64,000 nucleotides of DNA, from assembly GCA_945875865.1 (NCBI GenBank), contig CAMCMF010000002.1:179-64178 (forward strand), written 5' to 3'. The stretch's first letter is position 1. Every line of letters begins with the position of its first letter. Source of the stretch: Rhizobium sp. Q54. GTDB lineage: Bacteria > Pseudomonadota > Alphaproteobacteria > Rickettsiales > UBA1997. Positions 30,089-62,193 of this stretch are shown here, in pieces. The position numbers and the translations under genes are program-made. The notes under the pieces are model-generated. The model saw only the letters and a list, made by a program, of their open reading frames with translations, did no database searches and was not told the DNA's origin.

Positions 30089-30094
30089 AAAATT

Positions 30095-30901: not shown

Positions 30902-30902
30902 T

Positions 30903-33027: not shown

Positions 33028-33028
33028 T

Positions 33029-34207: not shown

Positions 34208-34224
34208 GTTTTAACCCCAAAGAT

Positions 34225-38649: not shown

Positions 38650-38720
38650 GCATCGCATAAAAGTATGCGCCGCAACTTCACGAGTAAGACAATCCAAAAA
38701 ACAAAATAATCGAAAAACCA

Positions 38721-39926: not shown

Positions 39927-40699
39927 TGAAAGCAGTAATTTTAGCTGGCGGACTCGGCACTCGAATCAGCGAAGAAACTCATCTTCGCCCCAAGCCCATG
40001 ATCGAAGTTGGCGGCAAACCGATTTTGTGGCATATCATGAAAATTTATTCTTCTTACGGCATAAATCATTTTGTGATCTGCCTTGGCTACAAAGGATATT
40101 TGATCAAAGAATATTTCGGCAACTATCGCCAACACATGTCGGACATGACGATAAATCTTTCCGACAACAGCGTTACAGTTCACAATAATTTCGCCGAAGA
40201 TTGGAAAATAACTTTAGTTGATACCGGCGAAACTTCGATGACCGGCGGCAGAATAAAGCGCATCCACGATTACGTAAAAGATGACGAAAGTTTTTGTCTA
40301 ACTTATGGCGATGGCGTTTCCGATGTTAATGTCGGCAAGTTGATCGACTTCCATAAATCTCACGGAAAACTCGCGACATTAACCGCCACTCAACCTCCGG
40401 GAAGATTCGGCGCACTCCACATCAACGACAAAAATTTGATCACAGAATTTCAGGAAAAACCTGACGGCGATGGTAATTTCATCAATGGTGGCTTCTTCGT
40501 TTTATCCCCAAAAGTAATAGATTACATCGATGGCGATAAAACCTTGTGGGAACAAGAACCACTAAAAAATCTCTCTAAAACCGGTCAGCTTATGGCTTAT
40601 AAACATACAGGTTTTTGGCAACCGATGGATACGTTACGCGATAAGGTGCAGCTTGAGGATTTGTGGCAGTCTGGTAAGGCTCCGTGGAAAGTTTGGTAA
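39926..40699 (+). CDS. rfbF: Glucose-1-phosphate cytidylyltransferase
   Basis: 257 aa. MKAVILAGGLGTRISEET, GYKGYLIKEYF, TGGRIKR and GFWQPMDTLRDK blocks. Confidence 0.95.
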   Translation: MKAVILAGGLGTRISEETHLRPKPMIEVGGKPILWHIMKIYSSYGINHFVICLGYKGYLIKEYFGNYRQHMSDMTINLSDNSVTVHNNFAEDWKITLVDTGETSMTGGRIKRIHDYVKDDESFCLTYGDGVSDVNVGKLIDFHKSHGKLATLTATQPPGRFGALHINDKNLITEFQEKPDGDGNFINGGFFVLSPKVIDYIDGDKTLWEQEPLKNLSKTGQLMAYKHTGFWQPMDTLRDKVQLEDLWQSGKAPWKVW

Positions 40700-40734: not shown

Positions 40735-43305
40735 ATGTCCGATAAATTGCTACTTAGCATATTGATTCCAACTAAAAATAGAGAAAAAAATCTAAGTAAC
40801 ACTTTACGTAGACTGACCAAATCAATCAAAAATTCTGGCATCAATTCTAATTCAATTGAAGTTATTGTAGCTGATAATTTTTCAAATGATGGTACGAAAA
40901 ACGTAGTCCAAGGATGGATAAAGAAGCATTCCTATATCAAATATTTCAAACAAGAGCAGCAATATTTTTCCGTTGAAGAATCTCTCTTTAACGGCCTTAA
41001 ATTTGCTAGCGGTGAATATGTTTGGACGATTGGTGATGATGATTTTGTAGCTTATGATTCAGTAAAAATTTTAACTGAAAATTTAAAAAATACTGATGCC
41101 AAATTCATATTACTTAATTGCGATATTTTAACGCCAGATCGTAAAAAAACTATCTACATGCGCTGCAGCTCAGAGCTTGTTGAATATGAATCGGGATTAG
41201 ATTTTTTTAGCGATTTTGGCATCACCAACACAACAATTTCATGTCTGTGTTTTAAGAGAGATGCTCTTGATAAGAAGCTATTTGATGAGCTAAGAAGTAT
41301 ATCTCCAATCTACAGCCGCTCCTGCACATTTCTCGCAAGTTTTCATAATAAAAAATGCGCTTTCTTATCTACACCAATCATCACTTACAGAGAAAATAAA
41401 CTAGCAATTCAGTATAAAGAAAATTCCAAATCACAAAAAAATAATGCCCAACCGGATTTATTTTCTTTCACCAACGGATTAATCGATCTGCTATTATTTT
41501 TGGAAAAAAGAATCTCCATTCCATTGGAAAAGCTGATCAAGCTTGAAGAAATGGAGTTAAGTAGAGACTCTTGGCGCGTCAAACACAGCCTGCTTTATTG
41601 CTTCATCGGCACTTTCGTAATTAAACAAATCAGAAGCTTAGTTGCAGAAAATCATGTTAACGATTTTTACAAGCAAGAGATCGAAAAATTTCTAACTAAA
41701 TGCCATGATTTTTTCTCAAGATTAGAGAATGAAGATGTTTTTATTCCTGAGTTTTTAGATTATATTCTTCACCTAAAAGAATCCTTACAAAGCAAGTCTT
41801 GGAAAAGACATTTCGCCGCTTTCGCTGAAGCTGAAACTCTGCAATATTTAGAAGATAAATTTTACAAAATCGAAGCCAACTTCTTCCTTAAAAAAGACAA
41901 TAAAATTAGCACCAGCAATCAGGCTATTTTATGTTTCAAGGATAGCTCTCATCTAAAGTTTTTGAGAAATAAAGCGGCAGAAATAAGCGGATCAAAAACC
42001 AACTTAACAATATTGGTTCCAACTTATAACAGAGCCCCAAATTTATTCTTCCTGCTTAGCCGAATGATTCAGCAGAAGATAGACACCATCAAGGATGTGG
42101 AGATATTGATCGCGGTTAATAAATGCTCCGACGAAACTTACGAAGTTTGCGATTTATTCAAAAATAAAATGCCGAATTTGAGAATAAAAAAGTTTGACGA
42201 TTTTGTTGATAGCGCTGAAGAAAATATCAATCGCGCCACTCAATATTGCAGCGGCAAATATATTTTTATTCTCGGCGATGATGATCTTTTGCTGTTCCAT
42301 CCATTTTGCTTCGCTCTTGCCCTAACCAGAAATTCCAACGCTCCGGCAATCATATTGAATAACGCTTTTGAAAGTGATGTATCCAAGAAAGATCTTAACG
42401 GGGTCGATGTTAAAGGCAGATTTGCTTTTCAACACACTATCGATTATCGCGATTTTTCATACCTAGCAAGAGATTGGGGCGTCACGATCTGCATGGCTTT
42501 CATATCAAGATACATAATCAGAAAAGATCTTTTCTTGAGCATGGAAAAGCATATCAAAATATCAAAAATCTATTCTCACGTTTTTGCTTTTCTTGATTTT
42601 TTCAGGGGTAAAAAAGTTTTATTGGTAGATTTGCCTTTAGTTGCGCGCGGCGATTCCGTAGTGCAGGATCGTTTTGAAACCCTCAAGAAAAAGGAAAATA
42701 TAAATCAATATTATTATTGGACCGTTGGACTATTACTGCACTTTGAAAATGTTATAAAATCCGGCATAGCTGACTCATCATGGTTCTTTAAAATCAAAGA
42801 ATATAGCCCGCCGATGGGCTGTTTTTATTTATGGAAAGAAATCTGTGCTCAATTGTGCAAACAATCAATTTTATATTTAAAAACCAAGGATGATTGCGAA
42901 AAACCTTCAATAAAAGCCAAGGAAATTCTTAACGGATTTTCCAAGTCGAAATTAAAGGGAAGAGATGCGGAAATTCTGAATAATTTCTTGGAAAAATATG
43001 AAAAAATATGCCAGTTAGATGCTAATAGATTATCCGAAGAATCGGCAAAAAATCACATCAAAGAATTCCAATATCTCCTCGATAGAATTGCTTCCAATGA
43101 CAATCTTTTGCTAAATTACATCGCTCAAACGCAAATCAATAAACCAAAGGAAAAGCTCAAAAAAATTCGACGCAAATTTTTTAGATCAACTCTGAAAAGA
43201 ACTGCCAGCGTGATTCGCCAATCTCGCAAAGCCATCAGCGTACCACTGGTAGGATTGGAAAGAAAAATCACGAGAATCACCCGCGCGATAAGAAAAATTA
43301 AATAA
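40735..43305 (+). CDS. Large protein with two family-2 glycosyltransferase domains and a basic C-terminal tail
   Basis: GT2 signatures occur twice: LSILIPTKNREKNL...VADNFSNDGT...GDDDF, and LTILVPTYNRAPNL...AVNKCSDET...LGDDDL. The C-terminus is Lys/Arg-rich. Confidence 0.65.
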   Translation: MSDKLLLSILIPTKNREKNLSNTLRRLTKSIKNSGINSNSIEVIVADNFSNDGTKNVVQGWIKKHSYIKYFKQEQQYFSVEESLFNGLKFASGEYVWTIGDDDFVAYDSVKILTENLKNTDAKFILLNCDILTPDRKKTIYMRCSSELVEYESGLDFFSDFGITNTTISCLCFKRDALDKKLFDELRSISPIYSRSCTFLASFHNKKCAFLSTPIITYRENKLAIQYKENSKSQKNNAQPDLFSFTNGLIDLLLFLEKRISIPLEKLIKLEEMELSRDSWRVKHSLLYCFIGTFVIKQIRSLVAENHVNDFYKQEIEKFLTKCHDFFSRLENEDVFIPEFLDYILHLKESLQSKSWKRHFAAFAEAETLQYLEDKFYKIEANFFLKKDNKISTSNQAILCFKDSSHLKFLRNKAAEISGSKTNLTILVPTYNRAPNLFFLLSRMIQQKIDTIKDVEILIAVNKCSDETYEVCDLFKNKMPNLRIKKFDDFVDSAEENINRATQYCSGKYIFILGDDDLLLFHPFCFALALTRNSNAPAIILNNAFESDVSKKDLNGVDVKGRFAFQHTIDYRDFSYLARDWGVTICMAFISRYIIRKDLFLSMEKHIKISKIYSHVFAFLDFFRGKKVLLVDLPLVARGDSVVQDRFETLKKKENINQYYYWTVGLLLHFENVIKSGIADSSWFFKIKEYSPPMGCFYLWKEICAQLCKQSILYLKTKDDCEKPSIKAKEILNGFSKSKLKGRDAEILNNFLEKYEKICQLDANRLSEESAKNHIKEFQYLLDRIASNDNLLLNYIAQTQINKPKEKLKKIRRKFFRSTLKRTASVIRQSRKAISVPLVGLERKITRITRAIRKIK

Positions 43306-43317: not shown

Positions 43318-44202
43318 ATGAAAAAAATTCTTCTGACCGGCGGGTCTGGATTTATCGGAAAAAATATCACCGAATCTTATCTAACAGAAAAATATCACAT
43401 CATAGCGCCAAAACGAGCTGAACTTGATTTAACTAACGATGAAAGCGTTCAAAACTTCTTCCAAAAAAATAATAATTTCGATGCGGTAATTCATTCTGCT
43501 TGCAGACCCGGACATCGCAATGCCGGCGATATTAGCGGATTATTTTACAGCAATAGCCGCATGTTTTTTAACTTGGCGAAATATTCATATTCTTACGGAA
43601 AGCTCATCGATATTGGCTCCGGAGCAATTTATGATGGACGTCATTACAAACCAAAAATGCGAGAAGAATATTTTGGCACCACAATTCCTGCTGATGATCA
43701 CGGTTTCTGCAAATATGTAATCGGAAAATATGTCGAGAAACATCCCAATATTGTTGATCTGCGCGTCTTTGGAATCTTTGGAAAATATGAAGATTACGCC
43801 ATTCGCTTCATCTCCAACGCCATTTGCAAAGCCATCTTCGATTTACCGATCACCATCAAACAAAATCGCAAATTTGATTATCTTTACGTTGATGATTTGA
43901 TGCCGGTTTTGGAATTTTTTATTGAGAACAAAGCACAATTTGATGCCTACAATATAACACCGGACAAGTCTGTAGAATTGCTGGAAATCGCCAAAATCAT
44001 CAACTCAATCTCACAAAAAAATTTACCGATAATTGTCGCAACAGAAGGTTTGGGTTTGGAATATAGCGGCGAAAATTCGCGCTTGAAAAAAGAAATGAAT
44101 TACAAGTTTAAAAAAATCGAAGATTCCGTTGGAGAGCTTTATAACTGGTATCTGAGCAATAAAAATAACATCGATAAACAACTTCTACTCACTGACAAAT
44201 AA
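43318..44202 (+). CDS. NAD-dependent epimerase/dehydratase-family (extended SDR) sugar reductase/epimerase
   Basis: MKKILLTGGSGFIGKNI Rossmann motif and YxxxK (YVIGK). Its size is similar to nucleotide-sugar 4-ketoreductases. Confidence 0.8.
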   Translation: MKKILLTGGSGFIGKNITESYLTEKYHIIAPKRAELDLTNDESVQNFFQKNNNFDAVIHSACRPGHRNAGDISGLFYSNSRMFFNLAKYSYSYGKLIDIGSGAIYDGRHYKPKMREEYFGTTIPADDHGFCKYVIGKYVEKHPNIVDLRVFGIFGKYEDYAIRFISNAICKAIFDLPITIKQNRKFDYLYVDDLMPVLEFFIENKAQFDAYNITPDKSVELLEIAKIINSISQKNLPIIVATEGLGLEYSGENSRLKKEMNYKFKKIEDSVGELYNWYLSNKNNIDKQLLLTDK

Positions 44203-44204: not shown

Positions 44205-45533
44205 ATGACCTCATCAAAACTGTCACATTCGATAACTACAAAATTACGAATAATTTTGATGATTTTATGCTTCATCACTTATTGCTCACTTGATTCGCTG
44301 TCAGAAGTTTTAGGCATAAAGCAGATTTTATGCTTAGGCTTGAAATCTGTATTTCTGGGCATCGCCGCTTATTTATTTCTATCCTTTTTCCATAATTTAC
44401 CTCATGGAGAAATCCATCCGCCAAAAGCAATTTCCCCAATCTCCACATTCGCCTCTCTTTTTTACACTAACGACAGTCTTTTGATTCTGCGATTTTTTGC
44501 CGCCTTCTGCGTTTTCTCAACTCACGCCGTAATTTTGCTTCATCCTGACTCGTTGATGGGAAATAAATTCATCGTCGGTTGCGCGCATTCCGGCATGGCG
44601 ATTTTTTTCACCTTGTCCGGTTATTTGATGGGCAAGGCTTTCATCTATAAAAGATATGAATTCAACCAATTGGGAATTTTAAAATTTTATAAAAACCGTT
44701 TCATCCGCATCGCACCTTTAGCCTTCAGCGTTTTTATAATTTACGTCACCTTGATGTATCCCGAAAAAATCAAACATAACTTGCTTGATATGTGGAGAGT
44801 TTTTGCTTTTCACTTTTATGGCAGCGGTGTTTATGGACTTCCGGGAATCGGCGCTCTGTGGTCTCTGACAGTAGAAATGCAATATTACCTGATCACACCT
44901 TTCATTTTTTATTGTTTTCGCGATGTCCTGGCTAAAAAGAAAATCGCTATATTTGCTATTCCGCTTTGCGTTGGATTGGTATATTTAAACCAACATTTCC
45001 ATCTCACTGTTTTAAATAGTTCGCCACAATTCTTCTCCACACTTCAGGGACAGCTACCATATTTTCTAATCGGCTTTGCGCTCAATTATCTCATCAAAGA
45101 TTTCATTTCCTCGCCAATCAAAACTTGGTCAAAAAGATATTTTTATTTCCAGACTTTTTTGCTAACTTTAGAATTTATTATCTTCTTTGCCCTCCTCGCC
45201 TACTTCCAAAAAATAATGTATCAATGGACTCTGATCGGCGCTTCGCTGGCAAGCTGCTATTTTATTCTGCGCTTGGAAATTTTTAAATTTGGCGCGAAAG
45301 ATTTTTCTAAAAAAATTAATTTTTACACAACGCTGCAATCACTCGGAGGACTTTCTTACGGATTTTATCTTTGGCATTCCGGCATTGGATTTGTATATTA
45401 TAATTCTGTGAAGCCAACCTATAGCGGAATGGGAGATTATATTTTGGAATGCACAATTTTGGCAGGAATTACAATTTTTGTTTCGATCTGGTCTTACATT
45501 TTCATCGAAAGACACTTCATGAGAAGCCGCTAA
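44205..45533 (+). CDS. Acyltransferase-3 family integral membrane O-acyltransferase
   Basis: 442 aa, multi-TM. LRFFAAFCVFSTHA is the His-containing AT3 N-terminal motif. Also FFTLSGYLM and WSLTVEMQYY. Confidence 0.75.
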   Translation: MTSSKLSHSITTKLRIILMILCFITYCSLDSLSEVLGIKQILCLGLKSVFLGIAAYLFLSFFHNLPHGEIHPPKAISPISTFASLFYTNDSLLILRFFAAFCVFSTHAVILLHPDSLMGNKFIVGCAHSGMAIFFTLSGYLMGKAFIYKRYEFNQLGILKFYKNRFIRIAPLAFSVFIIYVTLMYPEKIKHNLLDMWRVFAFHFYGSGVYGLPGIGALWSLTVEMQYYLITPFIFYCFRDVLAKKKIAIFAIPLCVGLVYLNQHFHLTVLNSSPQFFSTLQGQLPYFLIGFALNYLIKDFISSPIKTWSKRYFYFQTFLLTLEFIIFFALLAYFQKIMYQWTLIGASLASCYFILRLEIFKFGAKDFSKKINFYTTLQSLGGLSYGFYLWHSGIGFVYYNSVKPTYSGMGDYILECTILAGITIFVSIWSYIFIERHFMRSR

Positions 45534-46840
45534 GACAAAGCCAGCAAACCATCCAAAGTTTCTTCGCCGGTTTTTGTTTGCGCCATAATTCCTTTGCGCT
45601 TGGTCAAAATTTCTAGAACTGGTAAAATAAATTTTCCTCTGCGACTCAAGCCACCAGCAAGCAAAAAAGATGTGCTTTCATTTTCCAAATCAATCTCAGC
45701 AATTGCTTGCGCATATTGCTTCAACCATGATTTAGCAATTGCAGCGATTAATCCTCGTGCAGAAAATTTTCCTTCCATGATACCAGAAATGCTGCCGCCA
45801 TTTTTATAATTCCACGCCGCTTCAAACACCGCGAGATCAACATTCAATTCTGCATTCAAAACTTCTTCGCTACTAAGTGATGAGAAAATATTCCAGAAAG
45901 CAGAATCTTCATCACCTCTTACTGAGCAACTATCAAAGAAATTCGCAAAAACATTCAAGGCGCGTCCTGATGGAATGTGAGTTATGGCAGAAAAATTTTC
46001 ACCTTTAACTCCAAGACGAATTTCTAATTTCTCTGAAGGATTATTCATGCAACCGATAACTTGCGATCCGGTTCCGAGATTTATCAATAATTTTGCCAGA
46101 GCCGGAAAACCCGCGCCGTGCGCTGCAGCTTGCAGATCGCCGATACCGCCGAAAACTTTAACTTTTCGTTCCGCAATATTTATCTCGCCGATTTTTTGTC
46201 CGGCTTCAACAACTTTTGGGAAAATAATTTTTTGATAATCCAAGCCGGCCATTTTCGCTAAATTGGCTGACCAGTTTTTTTCCTTCACTGAAAATAATCC
46301 CGTGCCCGCCGCCAAAGAAGCGTGAATCGCCGGATCTTTTTCGCCGCCGCGCCACAACAGCCAATCGGCGAGAGTTAGAAAGCGAAAAGCGCTTGGTAAT
46401 TTATGAATTTTTTTTAAGTGAGCTAAAGTAATAAAAGGCAAGCCGCAACGCAATCTCATCGCGCTTTGCGCAAAAAAATCTTCGGAAATTTTTTGAAGAT
46501 CAGAGAGAGTTGAAGATCTGCTCGCACGCTCATCGCGCCAGCTGATATATGAGGTTAGCGGCTTGTCGGAATCAACATCAATCAACATCACGCCATGCAT
46601 TTCGGTGCAGAGCCACAAGCTGTCAATTTCTTGATACTCACGCAGAATTTCGCCGGCGGTTTTTTCAAAGGCGATCCAATAATCTTCGGGAGAAATTTCT
46701 ACCGCACCATCAGCACCAAAGTTTGGCGTCGGTGCAGCACATTCTTTAACTGCTATTATTTTTTCTTCTTTACAACACCAAGCCGCGCTTTTTATGCGAC
46801 TGGCGCCAAAATCAACAAGTAATGTGGTTGTTGATGTCAT
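45530..46840 (-). CDS. FGGY/ASKHA-family carbohydrate kinase-like protein
   Basis: 436 aa. LLVDFGASRIKSA phosphate-1 motif, SWRDERA, GGIGDLQAAAHGAG and LLAGGLSRR. Confidence 0.6.
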   Translation of the reverse strand: MTSTTTLLVDFGASRIKSAAWCCKEEKIIAVKECAAPTPNFGADGAVEISPEDYWIAFEKTAGEILREYQEIDSLWLCTEMHGVMLIDVDSDKPLTSYISWRDERASRSSTLSDLQKISEDFFAQSAMRLRCGLPFITLAHLKKIHKLPSAFRFLTLADWLLWRGGEKDPAIHASLAAGTGLFSVKEKNWSANLAKMAGLDYQKIIFPKVVEAGQKIGEINIAERKVKVFGGIGDLQAAAHGAGFPALAKLLINLGTGSQVIGCMNNPSEKLEIRLGVKGENFSAITHIPSGRALNVFANFFDSCSVRGDEDSAFWNIFSSLSSEEVLNAELNVDLAVFEAAWNYKNGGSISGIMEGKFSARGLIAAIAKSWLKQYAQAIAEIDLENESTSFLLAGGLSRRGKFILPVLEILTKRKGIMAQTKTGEETLDGLLALS

Positions 46841-46847
46841 GGGAATT

Positions 46848-48011
46848 TTATGAAATATCTAGGAAAGTCAGGACTTCAGAAATCGCTTGGCGCAATTCTT
46901 TTTCGCCGGCTTCGTTAAGCGTGAAATCAATGAAACGCATTTGCCCAATTTTCTCTAAAGTTGCCAATTTCAAAACTGCGCCTTCGGTTTTTTTATCGCG
47001 GCGCAATAAATCTAAAACTCCATCAAGCGAAGTTGCGGCGAAAATTTTCGCTACGTCAGACGGAACGATTTGACTGCCAACTTTTAGCAATAAATTTCTC
47101 TCTTCCACAGATAGCATTTTGCGCTGATAGGCGATTTCGTTTTCCACTAAAATGCCGATTGTAACCGCAATACCGTGAGGAATTTTATAATCGCTGAGAG
47201 CTTCTAACGCATGGCCGAAGCTGTGTCCGTAATTCATTGAACGTCGGATGTCGAGTTCAAATTCATCAAGCTCGACGATGGCTTTTTTAACCAAAAGAGA
47301 TTTTGAAATTAAGCGACTTCCGGCTTCCATATCACCTTGCAAAAATAGCGGAAGCTCTTTGATGAAAACATTTAAAAACATTTCACCACCGGTGACGCAA
47401 AGGCGGAAAATTTCTCCGATGCCGGAGAGAATATCGTTTCTTGATAATGTCGGTAAAAAACCAGTATCGATTATGACTTTTCTTGGAGCGGAAAAAAGCG
47501 CCAATAAATTTTTGGTGCGCTTGTGATTAAGTGCAGTTTTTCCACCAACACAACTGTCGCCTTGCGCCAATAAAGTTGTTGGAATGAATGTCCAAGGCAG
47601 GCCACGCTTATACATTGCTCCGGCGAAAGCACCTAAATCTTGAATTATTCCACCACCAATAACGTAAAGCATTGAAGTTTTTGTGGCCTGATTTTTTTCC
47701 AGAAAAGTTATGATTTCTAAAACTGTCGTGATCTCTTTTTCATCTTCCGCAGCGTTGACGAAGAAGGTTGGAATTGCGCTTAATTCTTTGATATTTTGTA
47801 AATATAGATCGTGAATTTTTTGATCGATGAGAATCAATGGCACCGAATTATTTTTCAGGATCATGTCAGCCAAACGCTTTCCCGGATTTTCGCCATGCAA
47901 GAAGCTTAGCTGATAAGGACGTGGAGATGATTTAATGACGAATCCTTCCTGATTTTCCAATTCCAGATTCACTGAAAAAGCCTGCTCTTGTATCTTAAAG
48001 TTACCTTTCAT
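46848..48011 (-). CDS. 3-dehydroquinate-synthase-like sugar phosphate cyclase
   Basis: 387 aa. VIGGGIIQDLGAFAGAMYKRGLPWTFIPTTLLAQGDSCVGGKTALN and IRRSMNYGHSFGHALE...IPHGIAV match DHQS nucleotide and metal motifs. EVIK reads EIFR. Confidence 0.8.
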   Translation of the reverse strand: MKGNFKIQEQAFSVNLELENQEGFVIKSSPRPYQLSFLHGENPGKRLADMILKNNSVPLILIDQKIHDLYLQNIKELSAIPTFFVNAAEDEKEITTVLEIITFLEKNQATKTSMLYVIGGGIIQDLGAFAGAMYKRGLPWTFIPTTLLAQGDSCVGGKTALNHKRTKNLLALFSAPRKVIIDTGFLPTLSRNDILSGIGEIFRLCVTGGEMFLNVFIKELPLFLQGDMEAGSRLISKSLLVKKAIVELDEFELDIRRSMNYGHSFGHALEALSDYKIPHGIAVTIGILVENEIAYQRKMLSVEERNLLLKVGSQIVPSDVAKIFAATSLDGVLDLLRRDKKTEGAVLKLATLEKIGQMRFIDFTLNEAGEKELRQAISEVLTFLDIS

Positions 48012-48043
48012 GCGTTTATTTTTTTAGTTTAGAAATTCAGCTT

Positions 48044-48736
48044 CTACTGAAATCCGCCGATTGAAAATCCACCATCAACGACAATGTCTTGTCCGGTAAG
48101 ATATTTGTTTTTTGGAGAACATAAAAACGAAGCAACTTCTGCAATATCTTGCGGCTCGCCCAATTTGCCCAAAGGAATTCCGCTGACTAATTTTTGAATC
48201 ACTTCAGGAGAATTATTGGCGCTGGTCATTTTGGTTTTGATATAGCCAGGAGAAATGGAATTAACTAAAATTCCGTAAGACGCTAACTCAATTGCTAAAG
48301 TTTTTACCGCTCCGTTCAAAGCATGTTTTGAAGTGACATAAGGCAATCTTGCACGTCTGGCGAGAAATCCGTAGAGCGAGGAAATAACAACTATGCGGCC
48401 AGATTTAACTTCTTTCCAATGAGGCAAGCATAAACGCACAATTTGTAAAAAACCGTGCAGGTTAACTTCGAGAGATTCGCGAATTTCTTTGTCGGATAAT
48501 TCTTCAAATAGCTTAGGATGATTTAATCCGGCCGAATGAACCAAGACATCAAATTGATTGCCGTTTTTGGCAAAATAATCAGCGATTTGTTCAGGCGATC
48601 CTAAACTAAAATCTTTGCGCCCTGCTCTAGTTACATCAAATCCATCGCGCTGAAGTTGATCGGAAATAGCGCCACCAATATCGCCATTTCCGCCAAGTAC
48701 CAGAGCGAGATTTGTAAGTTTAGGGGCGCCATTCAT
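48044..48736 (-). CDS. Short-chain dehydrogenase/reductase (FabG-like)
   Basis: 230 aa. VLGGNGDIGGAI, HSAG, ISSLYG...YVTSKHAL and the C-terminal GQDIVVDGG. Confidence 0.85.
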   Translation of the reverse strand: MNGAPKLTNLALVLGGNGDIGGAISDQLQRDGFDVTRAGRKDFSLGSPEQIADYFAKNGNQFDVLVHSAGLNHPKLFEELSDKEIRESLEVNLHGFLQIVRLCLPHWKEVKSGRIVVISSLYGFLARRARLPYVTSKHALNGAVKTLAIELASYGILVNSISPGYIKTKMTSANNSPEVIQKLVSGIPLGKLGEPQDIAEVASFLCSPKNKYLTGQDIVVDGGFSIGGFQ

Positions 48737-49845
48737 TATAAACCGCGATTGAGGATAAGTTGCTTAAGATTTTGATTTTCGTGATATGGACCATCGATGT
48801 GATTGATGGTAAGTGGTTCATTGGATTTAATTTCGATAACCAATTTTTCGCCATTCATAACTTCGCGACAAGATAGCTGTCCTTTGAGCAAAGGAACCGC
48901 CAAGTAAAAATCTTTTTCGAGATTTTCTTTGGTAAAAATATAGCCCGGTTTGAGATCTTTTTTAGCGTAAACGCCGCGCACCAAAGCATCAAGATACTCA
49001 ACTTCTTTTCTGGAAATAATTCTGCGTGAACTATTACAGCCGCCGCACATTTCAGCAGCTTTGTGGAATGATTTAAACCAAGTATCGCAATTTTCTGGAA
49101 CTGAACAATATGAAGAAACCGGAACACCTTCATAATGAATATCAACGTGACGCTCCCAACTACGAGCACCTTTGCCGTAAGAAATCATCATTGATGAAGA
49201 CCAATCGTGATATTCGTGAGTTGAAAGACCAATTACGTGGCTTGGATAGCGAGCTTTAAGATAGTCGATTTGATCGAGCTGAAGATCGCAATCTTCTGAA
49301 GGATAAAGTGAAACGCAGTGATTAATCGCCAATGGAATGTCGCGTTTTTCAAAGAAATGCACCAAATCATCGAGATCTTTTTCCGAAGCTCCTCCCGTTG
49401 AAACAATAGTTGGGCGACGAGTTGAGGCAATTTTTTCAATCAATGGCCAATCGTTAATATCAGAACTGGCGATTTTGATGATCGGCATGTCGAACTCGAC
49501 GCAAAGATCAACTGATGCTTCATCAAATGGAGTAGCCATTGGAATACATCCGAGATATTTAATTTCTTCAACCATGCGCGCAAAATCAGCTTTGCTCAAC
49601 TTGGTATCTTCAGTTTTTTTGATATAGCGGTTAGTAGTGTTTCCTTTAAATTTTGGGTGAACGAATTCATCAACATCTCTGAATTGAAGTTTTATCGCCG
49701 CTTTTACATTGTTGAAACGAATAACTGCCGCATGATCGCGTATGATTTTTAAACCACGATCGAGCTTTCCCCAGTGGTTATTGGCAAGCTCGAGTACAAA
49801 AAAATTCTCGAATAGATCTTTGTCTCTCTGTGAAATAGCGCTCAT
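48736..49845 (-). CDS. NeuB-family PEP-dependent ulosonic-acid synthase-like protein with C-terminal SAF domain
   Basis: 369 aa. ELANNHWG, ATPFDEASVD, IKIASSDIND, IVSTGGAS, NHCVSLYPS, GLSTHE and ERHVD, then a SAF-like VYAKKDLKPGYIFTKENL. Confidence 0.8.
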   Translation of the reverse strand: MSAISQRDKDLFENFFVLELANNHWGKLDRGLKIIRDHAAVIRFNNVKAAIKLQFRDVDEFVHPKFKGNTTNRYIKKTEDTKLSKADFARMVEEIKYLGCIPMATPFDEASVDLCVEFDMPIIKIASSDINDWPLIEKIASTRRPTIVSTGGASEKDLDDLVHFFEKRDIPLAINHCVSLYPSEDCDLQLDQIDYLKARYPSHVIGLSTHEYHDWSSSMMISYGKGARSWERHVDIHYEGVPVSSYCSVPENCDTWFKSFHKAAEMCGGCNSSRRIISRKEVEYLDALVRGVYAKKDLKPGYIFTKENLEKDFYLAVPLLKGQLSCREVMNGEKLVIEIKSNEPLTINHIDGPYHENQNLKQLILNRGL

Positions 49846-50123
49846 AAAATATCGACTCTCCGTTTTTTGTTATTTTTGCTTTTATTGGGAATAATTTTGC
49901 TTCAAATTTGCCAACAATCGAGTGTGAAATATAGGCTCTTGATGAACTAATTTTGCGCGGATTCAATCATCACCTTTTTTAAATTCAAAATATTTTATCG
50001 CTTTTTTAAGCAGCAATTAATTTAGGCAAAGTTATTGGATTCTTAACTCGAGGAAATTAAAAAATTACCCTGATGTGGTCGCATAAAAACTGCTGCAAAT
50101 AACTCTCCTTAATTTTGAAAATC

Positions 50124-51926
50124 ATGATCAAACTTTCTGATTATATAGCCAACGAACTCGTAAAATACGGCGTCCACCACATCTTCATGATTTCTGGTGG
50201 TGGCTCTATGCATTTAAATGATTCGCTGGGAAAACACGAAAAACTCGAATATATCTGCAACCATCACGAACAAGCATCAGCGATTGCAGCTGAAGGTTAT
50301 GCGCGAGTTTGCGGAAAATTGGCAGTAATTAATGTCACAACTGGCCCAGGCGGAGTGAACGCTTTAAACGGAGTTTTCGGACAATGGACTGATAGCATCC
50401 CTGCCCTTTATATTTCCGGTCAGGTTAAATATGAAACCACTCTCGATTCTTATCCGAATTCAAATCTGCGCCAACTTGGCGACCAAGAAGTTGATATTCT
50501 CAGCCTGGTTAAACCGATCACCAAATATGCTGAAATGGTGCGAGATCCCAAAGATATTAAAAAAATTCTGCATAAAGCAATTCGTCTTGCCACAACTGGT
50601 AGAAAGGGTCCGACTTGGATTGATATTCCGATCAACATTCAAGGCGCGATGATTGACGAAGCTAGTTTGCTGGATGAGGAATTTGTTGAAGAGAAAGTGG
50701 ATAATGCGTTTTTAGAAACGCAAATTTCCGAAGTAATAGCCAGCCTAAAATCCGCTAAAAGACCGGTAATTGTGGCTGGACATGGTGTTAGACTTGCGGG
50801 AACAATAGAAGATTTTCATCAACTTCTAAACAAAATTCAAATTCCTTTCGTTACCACTTTTAACGCCGCTGATGTCACTCCAACCGATCATCCGCTTTAT
50901 ATGGGAAAGATCGGATCTGTCGGACAAAGAGCGGGAAATTTTACTTTGCAAAATGCCGATCTGGTTTTGTTTTTAGGAACCAGAAACAATGTGCGCCAAG
51001 TTAGCTACAATTGGGAAATGTTTGCCAGAAAAGCTAAAAAAATTGTCGTTGATATCGATCAGGCTGAACTAAAAAAACCAACGCTTAAAATCGATCTTCC
51101 AATTTGCGCTGATTTGAAAAACTTCATTCCACTGCTATCTGCAAAAATCAGCGAAAAAATTTCCAGAAATGATTGGGTGGAATGGTGCGCAGCTAGAAAA
51201 CAGAAATATGATCCGTCGCAAAATCCCGAATATAAAAAATCACTCGGCCTGATAAATCCTTACAACTTCATTCAGGTTCTAACCAAAAATGCTCCCGAAG
51301 GCAGCGTAATGGTTGCAGGAAACGGCACGGCTTGCGTGGCTTTATTTCAAGCCGGCATCGTCAAAAAAGATCAAAAAGTTTTCTGGAATTCCGGCAATGC
51401 TTCAATGGGATATGATCTTCCGGCAGCAATTGGCGCCTGTATCGCCAATGATAAAAAAGACGTAATTTGTATCGCCGGTGACGGCAGCATCATGATGAAT
51501 CTGCAAGAGTTACAAACCGTGAAGCACCACAATTTGCCGATCAAAATTTTTATCCTGAACAACGCCGGCTATTCTTCGATTCGCCAAACCCAGAGAAATT
51601 TCTTCGGCGAAAAATTAGTCGCTTGCAGCGGCAATTCTGGGGTTTCGGTTCCAGATTTCGCCAAGCTTGCCATCGCTTTTGAACTTCCTTCAATGAAAAT
51701 AGAAAATAATGAAAATCTGCAAAGTGAAGTGGTAAAAGCTTTGGCAAAAGATGGTCCGCTAATTTGCGAAGTCATGCTCGACCATGATTATATTTTTCAG
51801 CCAAAATTATCTTCAGAAAAACTTCCTGACGGACGAATTATTTCCAAACCACTCGAAGACATGTTTCCATTTTTGGATCGAGAAGAGTTTGCACAAAATA
51901 TGATCTCAGACGATTTTGACAAATAG
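50124..51926 (+). CDS. ThDP-dependent enzyme of the acetolactate-synthase large-subunit / YerE type
   Basis: About 600 aa. N-terminal Pyr domain (ISGGGSMHLND, HEQASAIAAEGYAR, TTGPGGVNA) and ThDP motif GDGSIMMNLQELQTVKHHNLPIKIFILNNAGY. ATG 50124 is preferred over TTG 50115. Confidence 0.85.
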   Translation: MIKLSDYIANELVKYGVHHIFMISGGGSMHLNDSLGKHEKLEYICNHHEQASAIAAEGYARVCGKLAVINVTTGPGGVNALNGVFGQWTDSIPALYISGQVKYETTLDSYPNSNLRQLGDQEVDILSLVKPITKYAEMVRDPKDIKKILHKAIRLATTGRKGPTWIDIPINIQGAMIDEASLLDEEFVEEKVDNAFLETQISEVIASLKSAKRPVIVAGHGVRLAGTIEDFHQLLNKIQIPFVTTFNAADVTPTDHPLYMGKIGSVGQRAGNFTLQNADLVLFLGTRNNVRQVSYNWEMFARKAKKIVVDIDQAELKKPTLKIDLPICADLKNFIPLLSAKISEKISRNDWVEWCAARKQKYDPSQNPEYKKSLGLINPYNFIQVLTKNAPEGSVMVAGNGTACVALFQAGIVKKDQKVFWNSGNASMGYDLPAAIGACIANDKKDVICIAGDGSIMMNLQELQTVKHHNLPIKIFILNNAGYSSIRQTQRNFFGEKLVACSGNSGVSVPDFAKLAIAFELPSMKIENNENLQSEVVKALAKDGPLICEVMLDHDYIFQPKLSSEKLPDGRIISKPLEDMFPFLDREEFAQNMISDDFDK

Positions 51927-52005: not shown

Positions 52006-53010
52006 ATGCATAATAACATACTTGGCGATAATACCTCCAAGAACCCTTATTACATATTCGCTCCTTCATATATCAACACATCAGCTGGCATCAAAGCCTT
52101 ACATTTTTTGTGCCATCACCTCAATCTAAAAGGCTATCCGGCATTCTTGGTTACTGCTGCTGATTACTACTACAAAATAAATCCCGATCTTATTACTCCG
52201 ATAATCACTCAAGAAGTGATGAAGCTTCACCAGGAAAACAACAAAAATCCGATCGCTGTTTATCCGGATGTGGTAAAAGGCAATCCGCTAAACTCAAAAT
52301 GCACAGTTAGATATTTACTACATTACGCCGGATTTCTCGGAGGAGATAAAGAATTCGCAAAAGAAGATTTGATATTCACTTACACTAAAAAAATCGGGCA
52401 AAAAATGGGGATCAAAAATCCTCAAATCATGTTCATGCCGATATGTGATAGTGATATTTTTTATCCACCGGCAAACCAAGCAAACAGAAAAGGCGGCTGC
52501 TTTTACGCCAGCAAATATAGATTACTTTCCGGTGAAGAGCCTTTTGAAATCACCAAAAATGCCGTAGAAATAACCCGAAATTTACCCAACTCCCAAACCA
52601 CCGCAGAAGTCGCGGACTTATTGCGCAGATCAGAATGTTTTTATAGCTATGAAGATACTTCATTAATCACCGAAGCAATATTGTGCGGATGTCCTGTGGT
52701 GTTAGTAAAAAATAAATTTTTTGATGGCGAACCGTTGGCAATAAATGAGTTGGGAAGTGAAGGCTTCTCTGTCGATACAGATGAAAAAAATATAGAACAG
52801 GCTCACCAATCTATCGCACTTGCGCAAAAAAAATTCTTTGATGCGATAGAAAATTTTTGGCCGCAGTTGGATAATTTTATCACCCTCACCCAAGAACTCT
52901 CTTTAAAAACAAATAGCGGTGAATTTGATTTAAGATTCATCCCAACAAAAAAGAAGCGCACGCCGATTGGCAGAATTATCAAAAAGAAATTTAAGGATTT
53001 GATTGGATGA
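52006..53010 (+). CDS. Hypothetical protein, possible GT-B-like glycosyltransferase
   Basis: 334 aa. Only CFYSYEDTSLITEAILCGCPVVLV resembles a GT-B C-terminal motif. Confidence 0.3.
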   Translation: MHNNILGDNTSKNPYYIFAPSYINTSAGIKALHFLCHHLNLKGYPAFLVTAADYYYKINPDLITPIITQEVMKLHQENNKNPIAVYPDVVKGNPLNSKCTVRYLLHYAGFLGGDKEFAKEDLIFTYTKKIGQKMGIKNPQIMFMPICDSDIFYPPANQANRKGGCFYASKYRLLSGEEPFEITKNAVEITRNLPNSQTTAEVADLLRRSECFYSYEDTSLITEAILCGCPVVLVKNKFFDGEPLAINELGSEGFSVDTDEKNIEQAHQSIALAQKKFFDAIENFWPQLDNFITLTQELSLKTNSGEFDLRFIPTKKKRTPIGRIIKKKFKDLIG

Positions 53011-53136: not shown

Positions 53137-53532
53137 TCAGGCAAAAGTGAAGTGGCGGTGTAAAAAATAAATTATCGTCACAACGATCACGCTGACAATA
53201 TTAAAGGCCAAAACCTTGTTCATACCAAGTAAGTTAATGCAAATAAACATCAGTAATAAATTTATAAAAAATGCCAGCAAGTATGTCGCATTTGCTTTCA
53301 TCAAACCTTTCCAGCGGTTTTGCTTAGTTTTAAAAACTAAAAATTCGTAACTGAAATAACTGTTTAAAACAGAAATAACATAAACGATCACTGCAATTAT
53401 CGGGTAAGGTAATTCAAGAAAATAATAGCATAAATTTCCCAAGGCCAAACTAAATACAGTATTATATCCACCAACGATCAAGAATTTGATTTCCCGATTA
53501 TGCTTAATCAAATTTATCAGCCTGTCGAACAT
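53137..53532 (-). CDS. GtrA-family membrane protein (polyprenyl-phosphate-sugar translocation)
   Basis: 131 aa, 4 TM. FLIVGGYNTVFSLALGNL N-terminus and a C-terminal HRHFTF. Confidence 0.7.
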   Translation of the reverse strand: MFDRLINLIKHNREIKFLIVGGYNTVFSLALGNLCYYFLELPYPIIAVIVYVISVLNSYFSYEFLVFKTKQNRWKGLMKANATYLLAFFINLLLMFICINLLGMNKVLAFNIVSVIVVTIIYFLHRHFTFA

Positions 53533-53558: not shown

Positions 53559-54527
53559 ATGCCAAATAAAAAACGACTTCTCTCAATTGCAATGAACACT
53601 TATTACGCTGAGAGATTTATAATTTCTTCCTTGGAAAGAGTTAGAAAAATTGCTGAGGAGATAAGACGCAATTTCAATATCGATGTCGAGATTATTATAG
53701 TCGATGACGGCTCTAAAGATGAAACCGTAAATATTTTAAATGCCGAATTTAATAAAAACCAAGATTTTAAGTTTCTGACTTTAACCAGAAATTTTGGCTC
53801 CGTTAACTCTCACCGAGCTGGCGTTGCAGCCTGCAATGGCGATGCTGTTGTTTTTCTTGCATCCGATATGCAAGACCCGCCAGAAGTCATACCAACATTA
53901 GTTAGGGAATGGATCGACAATGGTCATAAATTTATTTACTGCCCTCGCCAATCCAGAAAAGATCCACTGATTTCAAAAATTTTTTCTCAGGCCTATTATT
54001 TTATTTTGAACAAAATTTCCCAAATCAAAGATTTTCCACGCAGTAGTTTTGATATTTGTTTGATGGATCGACAAGTCGTTAACGCATTTCTTGCCTGCAA
54101 AGAAAAAAACTACAATCCACCGCAATTAATTTGGTGGCTCGGCTTTAGATCACTAAGCATTCCAATTGTCAGAGAAAAAAGAGAGTTTGGAAAATCGGGT
54201 TGGACATTTAGCAAAAAACTGACTCTTGCAATCGACGGCATTATTAGCACCTCGCATGTTCCAATCAGATTCATTTCATCCTTTGGAATCATCGTCGCTT
54301 TCTTAAGTATCGGCTATGGATCATATATTTTTTATCAGGCGCTTTTTGGCTCTGTTGTGGTCGCCGGCTGGTCATCTCTTATGTGCATAGTTTCTTTTCT
54401 GCTTGGTATAGTAATGGTCATGCTTGGCATAATCGGAGAATATTTATACCGCGTTTTAGAAGAAACGAGAGGTCGTCCGGCCTACATTATCGACAATGTT
54501 CTCACGCCAAATAACCAACTTAAATAA
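53559..54527 (+). CDS. GT2 polyprenyl-phosphate glycosyltransferase (GtrB/ArnC/DPM1-like)
   Basis: 322 aa. IIIVDDGSKDET, ASDMQDPPE, and two C-terminal TM helices followed by GEYLYRV. Confidence 0.82.
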   Translation: MPNKKRLLSIAMNTYYAERFIISSLERVRKIAEEIRRNFNIDVEIIIVDDGSKDETVNILNAEFNKNQDFKFLTLTRNFGSVNSHRAGVAACNGDAVVFLASDMQDPPEVIPTLVREWIDNGHKFIYCPRQSRKDPLISKIFSQAYYFILNKISQIKDFPRSSFDICLMDRQVVNAFLACKEKNYNPPQLIWWLGFRSLSIPIVREKREFGKSGWTFSKKLTLAIDGIISTSHVPIRFISSFGIIVAFLSIGYGSYIFYQALFGSVVVAGWSSLMCIVSFLLGIVMVMLGIIGEYLYRVLEETRGRPAYIIDNVLTPNNQLK

Positions 54528-61698: not shown

Positions 61699-62193
61699 AT
61701 GAAAACTGCAATCTATCCCGGCACTTTTGATCCGATTACTTTTGGTCATATCGATATTATCAGACGGGCTTCCGAAATTTTTGATCACATAATCGTAGCG
61801 CCAGCTCGAGATAATTACAAAAATCCACTTTTTACATTGGAAGAAAGAGTCGAACTTATCGAATCAGAAATTAGAGATTTAAATTTACCAATCAAAATTT
61901 CTGTCGAAAAATTTGAAGGATTATTAGTTGATTTCGCCAGCAAAAAAAATGCCAAAACTATTGTTCGTGGCTTGCGCGCCGTTTCAGATTTTGAATATGA
62001 ATTTCAAATGTTCGGCATGAATGCCAAACTTAATCCTGATATTCAAACTATCTTTCTTCCCGCCTCCGAAACCAATCATTTTATTGCCTCAAAATTAGTC
62101 AAAGAAGTGGCGCGACTCGGCGGAAATATTTCGAAATTCGTTTCTAAAAATGTTGCAGAAAAATTAGCAAAAAAACTTTCTGAAAAAAAATAA
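61699..62193 (+). CDS. coaD: Phosphopantetheine adenylyltransferase
   Basis: 164 aa. AIYPGTFDPITFGHIDII, RGLRAVSDFEYE and ISKFVS motifs. Confidence 0.96.
   Translation: MKTAIYPGTFDPITFGHIDIIRRASEIFDHIIVAPARDNYKNPLFTLEERVELIESEIRDLNLPIKISVEKFEGLLVDFASKKNAKTIVRGLRAVSDFEYEFQMFGMNAKLNPDIQTIFLPASETNHFIASKLVKEVARLGGNISKFVSKNVAEKLAKKLSEKK

Follow-up and report, generated by a model that had tools for sequence, protein, structure and literature searches.

We analysed a 64-kb stretch of DNA (64,000 nucleotides, hereafter the window) from contig CAMCMF010000002.1 of the GenBank assembly GCA_945875865.1 (Rhizobium sp. Q54). Four genes in its glycan locus encode a NeuB-like aldolase, a FabG-like short-chain dehydrogenase/reductase (SDR), a relative of dehydroquinate synthase (DHQS) and an FGGY kinase. 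An earlier note on this DNA read them as a stand-alone shikimate-like or carbasugar module. In this study, the operon was found to be part of a larger conserved module (37.5-55.8 kb), and we propose, with a probability of about 0.6, that it forms the donor arm of a pathway for an acyl-branched sugar of the caryophyllose type, in which the DHQS-like enzyme would act without closing a ring.

Results

Genes of the operon and of the carboligase module

The open reading frame (ORF) list places the four genes of the operon as follows.

48736-49845, minus strand: NeuB-like aldolase, 369 aa
48044-48736, minus strand: FabG-like SDR, 230 aa
46848-48011, minus strand: DHQS-like protein, 387 aa
45530-46840, minus strand: FGGY kinase, 436 aa

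The genes are tightly packed and co-directional, separated in this order by a 1-nt overlap, a 32-bp gap and a 7-bp gap, and the FGGY stop codon runs 4 nt into a convergent acyltransferase gene. Coordinates and spacing are exactly those of the earlier note. Pfam and NCBIfam searches bore out its four family assignments, and all the motifs that it quoted were found, both in the NeuB-like protein (ELANNHWG at 19, NHCVSLYPS at 175, GLSTHE at 206) and in the DHQS-like protein (GGGIIQD at 119, EIFR at 200, NYGHSFGHALE at 260, PHG at 278). The SDR matched adh_short_C2 (E 2.5e-45) and the kinase FGGY_N (E 1.4e-21); the C-terminal FGGY domain of the kinase was undetected in the Pfam search, and its PDB matches to GlpK and XylB were weak. 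We propose that the kinase would phosphorylate the C7 hydroxyl of the NeuB product and that the SDR would serve as a 6-ketoreductase on the product of the DHQS-like enzyme.

The extent of the module was drawn too short in that note. A thiamine diphosphate (ThDP) enzyme gene and the genes for a cytidine diphosphate (CDP) sugar at 37579-40699 had been missed. These features are listed below.

49846-50114: 269-bp spacer, with presumed promoters, from which the NeuB-like operon and the ThDP gene diverge
50115-51926, plus strand, divergent from the operon: YerE/JanthE-like ThDP (probably also FAD) carboligase, 603 aa, with three TPP_enzyme domains
37579-38649, plus strand: CDP-glucose 4,6-dehydratase (RfbG); TIGR02622, 473 bits (cut-off 278), and Pfam GDP_Man_Dehyd/Epimerase
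38721-39926, plus strand: E1/ColD-type 3-dehydrase (RfbH-like), dependent on pyridoxamine phosphate; 332 bits against the RfbH model (cut-off 423)
39926-40699, plus strand: glucose-1-phosphate cytidylyltransferase (RfbF); TIGR02623, 461 bits (cut-off 300)

A scan for consensus promoters and terminators gave a site count no higher than in shuffled sequence. The ThDP enzyme scored 423 bits against PDB entry 8RPH (JanthE, 38% identity), 259 against PpYerE and 253 against Escherichia coli acetolactate synthase I, and it carries the GDG ThDP motif. Its ORF as listed begins with TTG; the JanthE alignment starts at residue 5, and an ATG at codon 4 (50124) may be the real start. JanthE, a YerE-like carboligase of Janthinobacterium sp. 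HH01, adds decarboxylated alpha-keto acids to ketones (PMC12188165). The enzyme type is plain from these matches; as to substrates, the window enzyme would decarboxylate a keto-acid and add the acyl group to C4 of a CDP-4-keto sugar.

The CDP-sugar genes would supply that acceptor. RfbG would make CDP-4-keto-6-deoxyglucose, from which the E1-type dehydrase would give the 3,6-dideoxy-4-keto acceptor. The motif SFYGSHII of the dehydrase has His in place of the lysine that binds pyridoxal phosphate in aminotransferases, which is the hallmark of E1/ColD 3-dehydrases; the protein has 401 aa, and about 35 N-terminal residues of the RfbH model are absent. No E3 reductase was found in the window, and the dehydrase may work in the manner of ColD without E3 or with an E3 partner encoded elsewhere. 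Many loci have an RfbF homologue (45-67% identity) in the vicinity of the DHQS-like gene.

The NeuB-like protein shares with the NeuB, PseI and LegI synthases the NeuB TIM-barrel family (PF03102, E 5e-35) and phosphoenolpyruvate (PEP) as likely nucleophile. It differs in lying far below the equivalog cut-offs of both PseI (119 bits, cut-off 340) and NeuB (106 bits, cut-off 400), and no CMP-synthetase or hexosamine-precursor genes were found among the window ORFs scanned. As had been claimed, CMP-ulosonate synthetase, Pse, Leg and NeuC genes were absent from the scanned window ORFs (all of at least 130 aa and some shorter); the sole cytidylyltransferase-like ORF in this connection was a 164-aa CTP_transf_like protein outside the glycan locus (61699-62193). 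The SAF domain named in the earlier note is divergent and, with 16 bits (E 0.016) over residues 290-350, falls short of the Pfam cut-off of 21 bits; in its favour, the alignment to PDB entry 3G8R reaches residue 328, and the full-length 3G8R protein has a precomputed PF08666 match. We suggest from the family that the enzyme makes a 3-deoxy-2-ulosonic (4-hydroxy-2-oxo) acid.

The best PDB match of the NeuB-like protein was 3G8R (199 bits, 36% identity), while NeuB and PseI structures scored 77-86 bits. This closest solved relative is the Chromobacterium violaceum protein 'SpsE', a NeuB-SAF-cupin fusion for which no reported function was found in the literature searched. Its gene, like that of the window protein, lies between RfbF/RfbG/E1 genes and a ThDP enzyme gene. 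The differences are its C-terminal cupin domain and a locus with a methyltransferase and a radical SAM gene and without DHQS-like, SDR or FGGY genes. In the Chromobacterium subtsugae/violaceum locus L031 (6845-18238), the 3G8R gene stands between RfbF-RfbG-E1 and the ThDP enzyme, followed by the methyltransferase, radical SAM and epimerase genes, and this looks like an undescribed branched-sugar cluster of a cultured organism. The Chromobacterium and window arrangements together indicate that the NeuB subfamily of 3G8R pairs repeatedly with YerE-like enzymes.

Family and active site of the DHQS-like enzyme

The DHQS-like protein matched the Pfam families DHQ_synthase (E 1e-32) and DHQS_C (E 9e-26). 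It scored 252 bits against the aroB model TIGR01357, under the 305-bit cut-off, and its best NCBIfam model was TIGR04425, 'AroB-related putative sugar phosphate phospholyase (cyclizing)', at 295 bits, under the 400-bit cut-off. Identity to true DHQS was 24-35%, and PDB scores were 104-138 bits for DHQS against 65-90 bits for cyclases of the types of 2-deoxy-scyllo-inosose synthase (DOIS), 2-epi-5-epi-valiolone synthase (EEVS) and desmethyl-4-deoxygadusol synthase (DDGS). Relatives number in the thousands, the nearest 120 at 54-74% identity, while the protein of the window itself was met on metagenome contigs only. In a neighbour-joining tree, 42/42 SDR-linked sequences and 7 others, 6 of them with a ThDP gene nearby, formed one clade of 49 that leaves out every PDB DHQS, DOIS and the 48 AroB-like sequences (bootstrap 47/60). 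The phylogenetic check proposed in the earlier note thus places the protein outside housekeeping AroB, in a separate clade, below the aroB cut-off and in a neighbourhood of its own. Tree, scores and gene neighbourhood indicate that the gene is a distinct paralogue with its own module and not the housekeeping aroB. The motif DSC versus DSS was tried as a classifier and rejected, as it misplaced the cassette members L004, L008, L011 and L046; best-hit class and the tree were used instead.

For the active site, 20 cassette sequences were aligned with the DHQS of Aspergillus nidulans (AnDHQS, 1DQS), three more PDB DHQSs and the DOIS of Bacillus circulans (BtrC, 2D2X); the AnDHQS and BtrC sequences used are exact matches to the PDB entries. 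The window protein keeps 12 of the 13 substrate and metal residues of AnDHQS, and K197 is replaced by R203, in agreement with the earlier observation of intact nucleotide-loop and metal-ligand motifs next to EIFR. In 18 of the 20 cassette sequences, R130, D146, K152, N162, E194, K250, R264, N268, H271, H275, H287 and K356 are all retained; L020 and L022 carry Asn in place of H275, and in L024 the residue at H287 is unread. The K197 position is Arg in the subclade of the window and Lys in the most distant members. A wider survey of 127 representatives of the nearest 50%-identity clusters, all of which match TIGR04425, showed the active-site residues kept almost throughout (R264 in 127/127), with Lys in 96, Arg in 20 and His in 11 at the K197 position. 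At residues 152-158 the clade has DSC(I/V)GGK where the compared PDB DHQSs have DSS or DAA, and C154 is nearly invariant among the 127.

The DOIS control BtrC, whose substrate is a neutral sugar phosphate, deviates from DHQS at R264G, N268E and K356N. In the cassette enzymes, R264 and N268 are both retained. We take R264 to be the residue that binds the carboxylate of 3-deoxy-D-arabino-heptulosonate 7-phosphate (DAHP) in 1DQS. No paper naming the carboxylate-binding residues of DHQS was found in the literature searched, and the DOIS comparison served instead. Since DOIS lacks residues that the cassette keeps, the cassette substrate probably bears both a carboxylate and a phosphate. Provided that R264 has the role assumed here, a DAHP-like substrate (a 2-keto-3-deoxy acid 7-phosphate) would place the DHQS-like enzyme before the ThDP-dependent decarboxylation. 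Of the cyclase families named for comparison in the earlier note, DOIS was compared residue by residue.

The enzyme can be set beside two better known uses of the fold. As at the entry of the shikimate pathway, where DAHP synthase is followed by AroB, a PEP aldol product with a 7-phosphate would be passed to a DHQS-fold enzyme; the window differs in its NeuB-type aldolase with a separate kinase, in its neighbourhood of glycan genes instead of aroK, and in an outcome that is probably not a carbocycle. DOIS, EEVS and DDGS share the superfamily and were likewise recruited outside primary metabolism, and the window enzyme is set apart from DOIS by its DHQS residues.

Conservation across loci

Related loci came from contig look-ups, from GTDB species genomes (21 loci) and from metagenomes (80 loci), and were annotated by BLAST against the window proteins. 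The GTDB loci belong to metagenome-assembled genomes (MAGs) with the labels Pelagibacterales, Afipia, Polynucleobacter, Crenothrix, Lysobacterales, Beta-, Gamma- and Alphaproteobacteria, Treponema, Leptonemataceae, Acidimicrobiales, Ca. Sulfotelmatobacter, Thermodesulfobacteriota, Bacteroidetes and Akkermansiaceae; the loci with the DHQS-like gene, about 50, come from more than 10 phyla. Two loci from SPRUCE samples, L016 (Acidimicrobiales MAG) and L017 (Ca. Sulfotelmatobacter MAG), have the same gene maps and identities, and one of the two binnings is probably wrong. A tblastn search of a plasmid collection returned ordinary aroB genes only (about 30% identity).

In 55 loci the DHQS homologue was nearer to the window protein than to A. 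nidulans DHQS; 45 loci carried an ordinary AroB. Where enough upstream sequence was available, a homologous SDR gene lay directly upstream in 40/50 DHQS-like loci and in 0/38 AroB loci. The counts for fully flanked loci (at least 4 kb on both sides; 27 DHQS-like and 16 AroB loci) were as follows.

SDR directly upstream: 24/27 DHQS-like loci, 0/16 AroB loci
ThDP gene: 18/27 DHQS-like loci, 0/16 AroB loci
Aldolase: 17/27 DHQS-like loci, 0/16 AroB loci
RfbG: 15/27 DHQS-like loci, 0/16 AroB loci
RfbF: 12/27 DHQS-like loci, 0/16 AroB loci
Family 2 glycosyltransferase (GT2): 10/27 DHQS-like loci, 0/16 AroB loci

An aldolase was present in 17 of the 18 ThDP-positive loci and in none of the 9 ThDP-negative ones, and the module genes were interleaved in several orders. 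The co-occurrence of NeuB-like and DHQS-like genes that the earlier note had asked about was thus seen elsewhere. Because the arrangement recurs in dozens of unrelated genomes, it is more than a chance association. The smallest version was found on the chromosome of a Leptonemataceae MAG (L018, 7481-11146), where ThDP, SDR and DHQS-like genes stand alone in three overlapping reading frames. The surrounding 10 kb contain neither an aldolase or kinase gene nor CDP-sugar genes, and among the neighbours are genes for cysteine-rich VSP-like repeat proteins and for a DCC1-like protein. A DCC1-like gene (MMAR_2323) also lies in the lipooligosaccharide (LOS) locus of Mycobacterium marinum.

The aldolase was of the NeuB-like type in 10 loci, HpcH/HpaI-like in 5 and HMGL-like in 2. 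HpcH/HpaI-type pyruvate aldolases occur at L016, L023, L032-L035, L045, L060 and L099, and HMGL-like ones at L015, L037 and L042. That non-homologous aldolases occupy the same slot points to a shared function, the making of a 4-hydroxy-2-oxo acid. The accessory genes follow the type of aldolase: an FGGY kinase was present in 9/10 NeuB-type loci against 0/5 HpaI-type loci, and a haloacid dehalogenase (HAD) phosphatase in 6/10 against 0/5. Bacterial NeuB enzymes use an unphosphorylated aldose. On the simplest reading, with NeuB the phosphate would be added afterwards by the kinase, whereas HpaI-type enzymes can take the aldose phosphate directly. Carriers of the NeuB-plus-kinase version were marine Gammaproteobacteria and MAGs with the labels Pelagibacterales, Polynucleobacter, Afipia and Crenothrix.

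A subgroup of the clade (L038, L041, L047, L048, L050 and L052) has no ThDP gene. DegT-type genes are nearby throughout, RfbF or RfbG near some loci, and aminotransferases and acetyltransferases also occur. At L038 (5297-11042) and L047 (6797-11914), the SDR-DHQS-like pair is flanked by genes for a D-2-hydroxyacid dehydrogenase and a GFO/IDH/MocA oxidoreductase; L038 also encodes a GmhA-like SIS protein, a sulfotransferase-like protein and an FdtA-hexapeptide fusion. This subgroup suggests that the pair also serves in one or more further glycan pathways, and as a speculation, such a pathway might start from a heptulosonate 7-phosphate made from sedoheptulose 7-phosphate.

Comparison with known branched-sugar loci

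The combination of a ThDP carboligase with CDP-4-keto-sugar genes is that of the 'unifying scheme' of Steitz et al. 2022 (PMC9306805) for acyl-branched sugars. In this scheme a hydroxylated alpha-keto acid, the product of an aldolase, is decarboxylated and joined to C4 of CDP-4-keto-3,6-dideoxyglucose by a ThDP enzyme, after which a reductase finishes the branch. The JanthE locus has the erwiniose-type layout of that work, in the order RfbF, RfbG, E1, JanthE, an epimerase-family reductase, a BphJ-like acetaldehyde dehydrogenase and a BphI-like (HMGL/DmpG) aldolase. When the window is compared with the JanthE locus and the published scheme, the NeuB-SDR-DHQS-FGGY block fills the slot of the keto-acid aldolase module. 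The loci for yersiniose (YerE/YerF), erwiniose (ErwE/F/I/J) and JanthE share with the window the ThDP carboligase and, probably, the CDP-4-keto-3,6-dideoxyglucose genes, a 4-hydroxy-2-oxo-acid aldolase and a reductase. They differ in using pyruvate itself or BphI/BphJ-type aldolases and in having no DHQS-like gene, FabG-like SDR or kinase, and their donors have 3-5 carbons against probably 7 in the window system.

A closer counterpart is the caryophyllose sub-cluster MMAR_2327-2336 of M. marinum. The annotations of the LOS locus are those of RefSeq in Table S2 of PMC12395582.

MMAR_2327: GT87 family
MMAR_2329: DHQS-family protein
MMAR_2331: aldolase, HpcH/HpaI type
MMAR_2332: ThDP-binding protein
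MMAR_2333: GT2, by annotation the counterpart of the ArnC/PgfS-like GT2 of the window (listed below)
MMAR_2334: RfbF, glucose-1-phosphate cytidylyltransferase
MMAR_2335: RfbH
MMAR_2336: RfbG, CDP-glucose 4,6-dehydratase

Apart from the aldolase family and the kinase, the annotated gene set matches that of the window: M. marinum has an HpcH/HpaI (pyruvate) aldolase with no kinase listed, where the window has a PEP-dependent NeuB-type enzyme and an FGGY kinase. The hosts also differ, one being a mycobacterium and the other a Gram-negative proteobacterium. The environmental loci L016, L060 and L099 have the HpaI-type layout of M. marinum, with DHQS-like genes in the clade of the window. The gene mmar_2329 lies within the LOS locus and is co-regulated with it, deletion of MMAR_2331, 2332 or 2333 abolishes caryophyllose addition, and MMAR_2332 was shown to accept hydroxylated keto-acids (PMC9306805). 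The M. marinum sugar is 3,6-dideoxy-4-C-(D-altro-1,3,4,5-tetrahydroxyhexyl)-D-xylo-hexopyranose. Its linear side chain lacks a 2'-hydroxyl and terminates in a methyl group at 6', and there is no carbocycle; the 2'-deoxy position would correspond to C3 of pyruvate or PEP.

A 'dehydroquinate' match in the supplement for M. marinum 1218R (PMC13354803) was considered as a LOS gene and rejected, as it belongs to a different locus. There, outside the LOS locus, genes 00544-00547 are aroB_1, kduD_1 (SDR), yfbT (HAD phosphatase) and nanK, the last being a ROK kinase as annotated in the sister strain 1218S (PMC13354803). They form a second, separate grouping of DHQS-like, SDR, phosphatase and kinase genes in M. 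marinum.

Other genes of the window

The remaining features around the module are as follows.

40735-43305, plus strand: two-domain GT2 glycosyltransferase, 856 aa, with two Glycos_transf_2 stretches
43318-44202, plus strand: extended SDR of the epimerase/reductase family, 294 aa; Pfam Epimerase and RmlD_sub_bind
44205-45533, plus strand: Acyltransferase_3 membrane O-acyltransferase (PF01757, E 2e-27), not conserved among related loci
52006-53010, plus strand: protein of unknown family directly after the ThDP gene, 334 aa, no significant Pfam or NCBIfam match
53137-53532, minus strand: GtrA-family membrane protein (flippase-type helper; PF04138, E 5e-17), recurring in related loci
53559-54527, plus strand: ArnC/PgfS-like GT2 (NCBIfam PgfS E 2e-53, ArnC-type E 3e-40), recurring in related loci
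54527-55837, plus strand: GT87-like GT-C glycosyltransferase (PF09594, E 2.4e-14)

The extended SDR is a candidate, in a YerF-like role, for the reductase of the branch C1' ketone or of the sugar; no homologue of 'Epim364', a reductase conserved beside the ThDP gene in other loci, was found in the window. The ArnC/PgfS-like GT2 would move the finished sugar to polyprenyl phosphate, and the GT87-like protein would carry out the final periplasmic transfer onto the glycan.

The 20-56 kb island otherwise holds rmlABCD, FdtA, DegT and acetyltransferase genes, two PhyH dioxygenase genes, a KAS III gene and further glycosyltransferase genes. At 20160-26533, RmlB, RmlA, an FdtA-type isomerase, a DegT aminotransferase, RmlD and RmlC are encoded, so that the locus also makes dTDP-rhamnose and probably a dTDP-3-amino-3,6-dideoxyhexose. 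At 27613-37183 there are genes for a methyltransferase, a hexapeptide acyltransferase, PhyH-type dioxygenases (30095-30901 and 34225-35016), a GT61-like protein, a zinc-dependent alcohol dehydrogenase, an SDR and a KAS III-like protein, and the product of this block may be an unusual substituent, acyl or hydroxylated. A PhyH gene (MMAR_2314) is likewise present in the LOS locus of M. marinum. The flanks of the window consist of housekeeping genes of a Gram-negative proteobacterium. Among them, a TrpG/PabA-type glutamine amidotransferase is followed by TrpD (10741-12329); the two indicate chorismate use in this organism, which suggests a separate shikimate pathway with an ordinary aroB elsewhere in the genome, of which the window covers 64 kb.

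Discussion

The interpretation of the operon as a stand-alone carbasugar module does not hold, because its genes go with a YerE/JanthE-like ThDP carboligase and with genes for CDP-4-keto-(3,)6-deoxyglucose, the combination of the published acyl-branched sugar scheme (PMC9306805). Nor does a carbocyclic product agree with M. marinum, which alone combines this gene set with a known product and makes a linear tetrahydroxyhexyl chain. The order of reactions proposed in the earlier note, namely PEP aldol addition, phosphorylation, a DHQS-type step and reduction, remains plausible, as the DAHP-type active site is intact; its ring closure is unlikely.

In the pathway that we favor, the NeuB-like enzyme would condense PEP with a free four-carbon aldose to a 3-deoxy-hept-2-ulosonic acid. 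In many related loci a HAD phosphatase could release this aldose from a tetrose phosphate; the window has no HAD gene. The FGGY kinase would then phosphorylate C7 to give a DAHP-like acid. On this acid, the DHQS-like enzyme would perform transient NAD+ oxidation at C5, metal-dependent beta-elimination (E1cB) of the phosphate and re-reduction, and would let the resulting 6-keto-7-deoxy acid go without aldol ring closure. Reduction of the C6 ketone by the SDR would yield a 3,7-dideoxy-heptulosonate, which corresponds to 'compound 8' postulated for caryophyllose by Steitz et al. (PMC9306805). The ThDP enzyme would decarboxylate this keto-acid and add the acyl anion to C4 of CDP-4-keto-3,6-dideoxyglucose, and a reductase would turn the branch ketone into an alcohol. 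From the CDP-sugar, the residue would reach the surface glycan by way of the polyprenyl-phosphate GT2, GtrA and the GT87-like GT-C protein. Such a mechanism would account for two features of the side chain, its terminal methyl group and its 5'-hydroxyl, as well as for the carboxylate site that is kept and the correlation of kinase with aldolase type, and it gives every conserved gene a role.

Several points weigh against this proposal. The work of Knowles and Bartlett is reported to show that dehydroquinate forms spontaneously from the enol-pyranose intermediate of DHQS. To keep the ring open, the enzyme would have to protonate C7, or capture would have to be very fast, and we know of no non-cyclising member of the DHQS family. 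The substrates, the step order, the non-cyclising outcome and the orthology of MMAR_2329 are our reading of the observed gene families, conservation statistics, conserved residues and ThDP-JanthE relationship; for MMAR_2329, the assignment to the clade of the window comes from RefSeq annotation and gene order. The M. marinum annotations compared cover MMAR_2327, MMAR_2329 and MMAR_2331-2336, and an SDR next to MMAR_2329 is at most presumed. The window has none of the HAD phosphatase, 'Epim364' reductase and E3 reductase of other loci, and the ThDP-less subgroup means that the DHQS-like/SDR pair is not exclusive to branched sugars. In addition, Steitz et al. propose that the substrate of the aldolase is an aldehyde already deoxygenated (PMC9306805).

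If the DHQS-like enzyme instead completed the intramolecular aldol reaction, the glycan would come to carry a carbocycle resembling dehydroquinate or quinate. The ring would arise as the free acid or, where ThDP ligation comes first, C-linked to the sugar. All catalytic residues of DHQS are kept, and the nearest NCBIfam model is named as cyclizing. To our knowledge, every characterised member of the family is a cyclase, with an intermediate that tends to cyclise by itself. We nevertheless consider this outcome unlikely, since a dehydroquinate-type product is no alpha-keto acid and would be an unfit donor for the ThDP enzyme, which is found wherever the aldolase is, and the equivalent of Arg264 speaks against action after decarboxylation. 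The only carrier of the same annotated set with a known product has a linear side chain, and the known carbocyclic sugars caryose and bradyrhizose are at odds with DHQS regiochemistry: caryose is linked through O7, so that its C7 bears oxygen, whereas closure of the DHQS type gives CH2 there. Both caryose (4,8-cyclo-3,9-dideoxynonose) and bradyrhizose were tried as products by retro-biosynthesis and rejected, since neither is matched by the CH2 that DHQS-type closure gives at the nucleophilic carbon or by the 3-deoxy position that results from PEP or pyruvate. The Arg at K197 in the subclade of the window leaves room for a chemistry different from that of other members, and it is conceivable, though doubtful, that this subclade does close the ring and yields a quinate-like carbocycle in the glycan, as a cyclitol-carboxylate or as a carbocyclic branch C-linked to a deoxyhexose. 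An undescribed type of sugar, made by a shikimate-like route of NeuB, kinase and DHQS paralogue in abundant aquatic bacteria, would follow if this were true.

The DHQS-like enzyme and the SDR might also act before the aldolase, converting a tetrose 4-phosphate into the 4-deoxy-tetrose aldehyde ('compound 28') that is then condensed with PEP or pyruvate. This order would fit the deoxy aldehyde substrate proposed by Steitz et al. (PMC9306805). It would lead to the same final sugar, and the cyclisation problem would be gone, as a four-carbon substrate cannot cyclise. We regard it as improbable, for the active site keeps the Arg264 equivalent that is absent from DOIS with its neutral sugar phosphate, and the tracking of kinase and HAD genes with aldolase type (FGGY in 9/10 against 0/5) would be left unexplained. 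Moreover, DHQS chemistry needs a substrate in pyranose form, which is impossible for a tetrose. A small independent pathway, in which a shikimate- or quinate-like or deoxy-ulosonic acid is used as an acyl substituent or exported and the ThDP and CDP-sugar genes are mere neighbours, is very improbable. The ThDP-less subgroup, with its 2-hydroxyacid dehydrogenase, GFO/IDH/MocA, aminotransferase and acetyltransferase genes, and the Acyl_transf_3 gene abutting the operon in the window would suit it; the almost perfect co-occurrence of ThDP and aldolase genes across phyla, the interleaved gene orders and the overlapping frames of L018 would not, and there is no conserved acid-activating ligase, nor is the Acyl_transf_3 gene conserved in related loci. 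Still more remote is the synthesis of an ordinary nonulosonic acid (sialic, pseudaminic or legionaminic) with the other genes elsewhere in the genome. The NeuB Pfam domain is present as this would require, but the PseI and NeuB equivalog cut-offs were missed by far, no NeuA-, NeuC- or PseB/C-type genes were found among the scanned window ORFs or the called genes of L001-L005, and the nearest relative of solved structure, from Chromobacterium, has a ThDP enzyme as its partner. On balance, the donor arm of a caryophyllose-type branched sugar with a non-cyclising DHQS-like step is the explanation that we prefer.

The kind of pathway proposed here is known. Nothing relevant was found in the literature searched on NeuB with DHQS and FGGY, on DHQS with O-antigen and thiamine, or on TIGR04425. 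The statement in the earlier note that the gene combination is undescribed thus fails for the set as a whole, parts of which are on record in M. marinum, and stands, within that literature, for the NeuB-plus-kinase version and the role of the DHQS-like/SDR pair. The involvement of a DHQS paralogue with an SDR and the wide spread of the module in aquatic bacteria appear to be new in the literature searched. A physiological setting is also suggested for the 3G8R protein, in its own locus, and for JanthE-type carboligases, of which the window enzyme is merely a 38%-identical relative.

As surface components, acyl-branched higher sugars such as caryophyllose, erwiniose, gastriose and the sugar of R. 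palustris are rare and antigenic. How their long side chains acquire a terminal deoxy group is unexplained in the literature searched, and elimination of a 7-phosphate followed by ketone reduction is a candidate route. If this is true, the DHQS family would gain a non-cyclising, deoxygenating activity, and the published aldolase step would need revision, with a tetrose or tetrose phosphate as substrate in place of a deoxy aldehyde. Our results also suggest that caryophyllose-like sugars are far commoner in aquatic bacteria than the few known structures imply, which bears on the recognition of these bacteria by phages and grazers.

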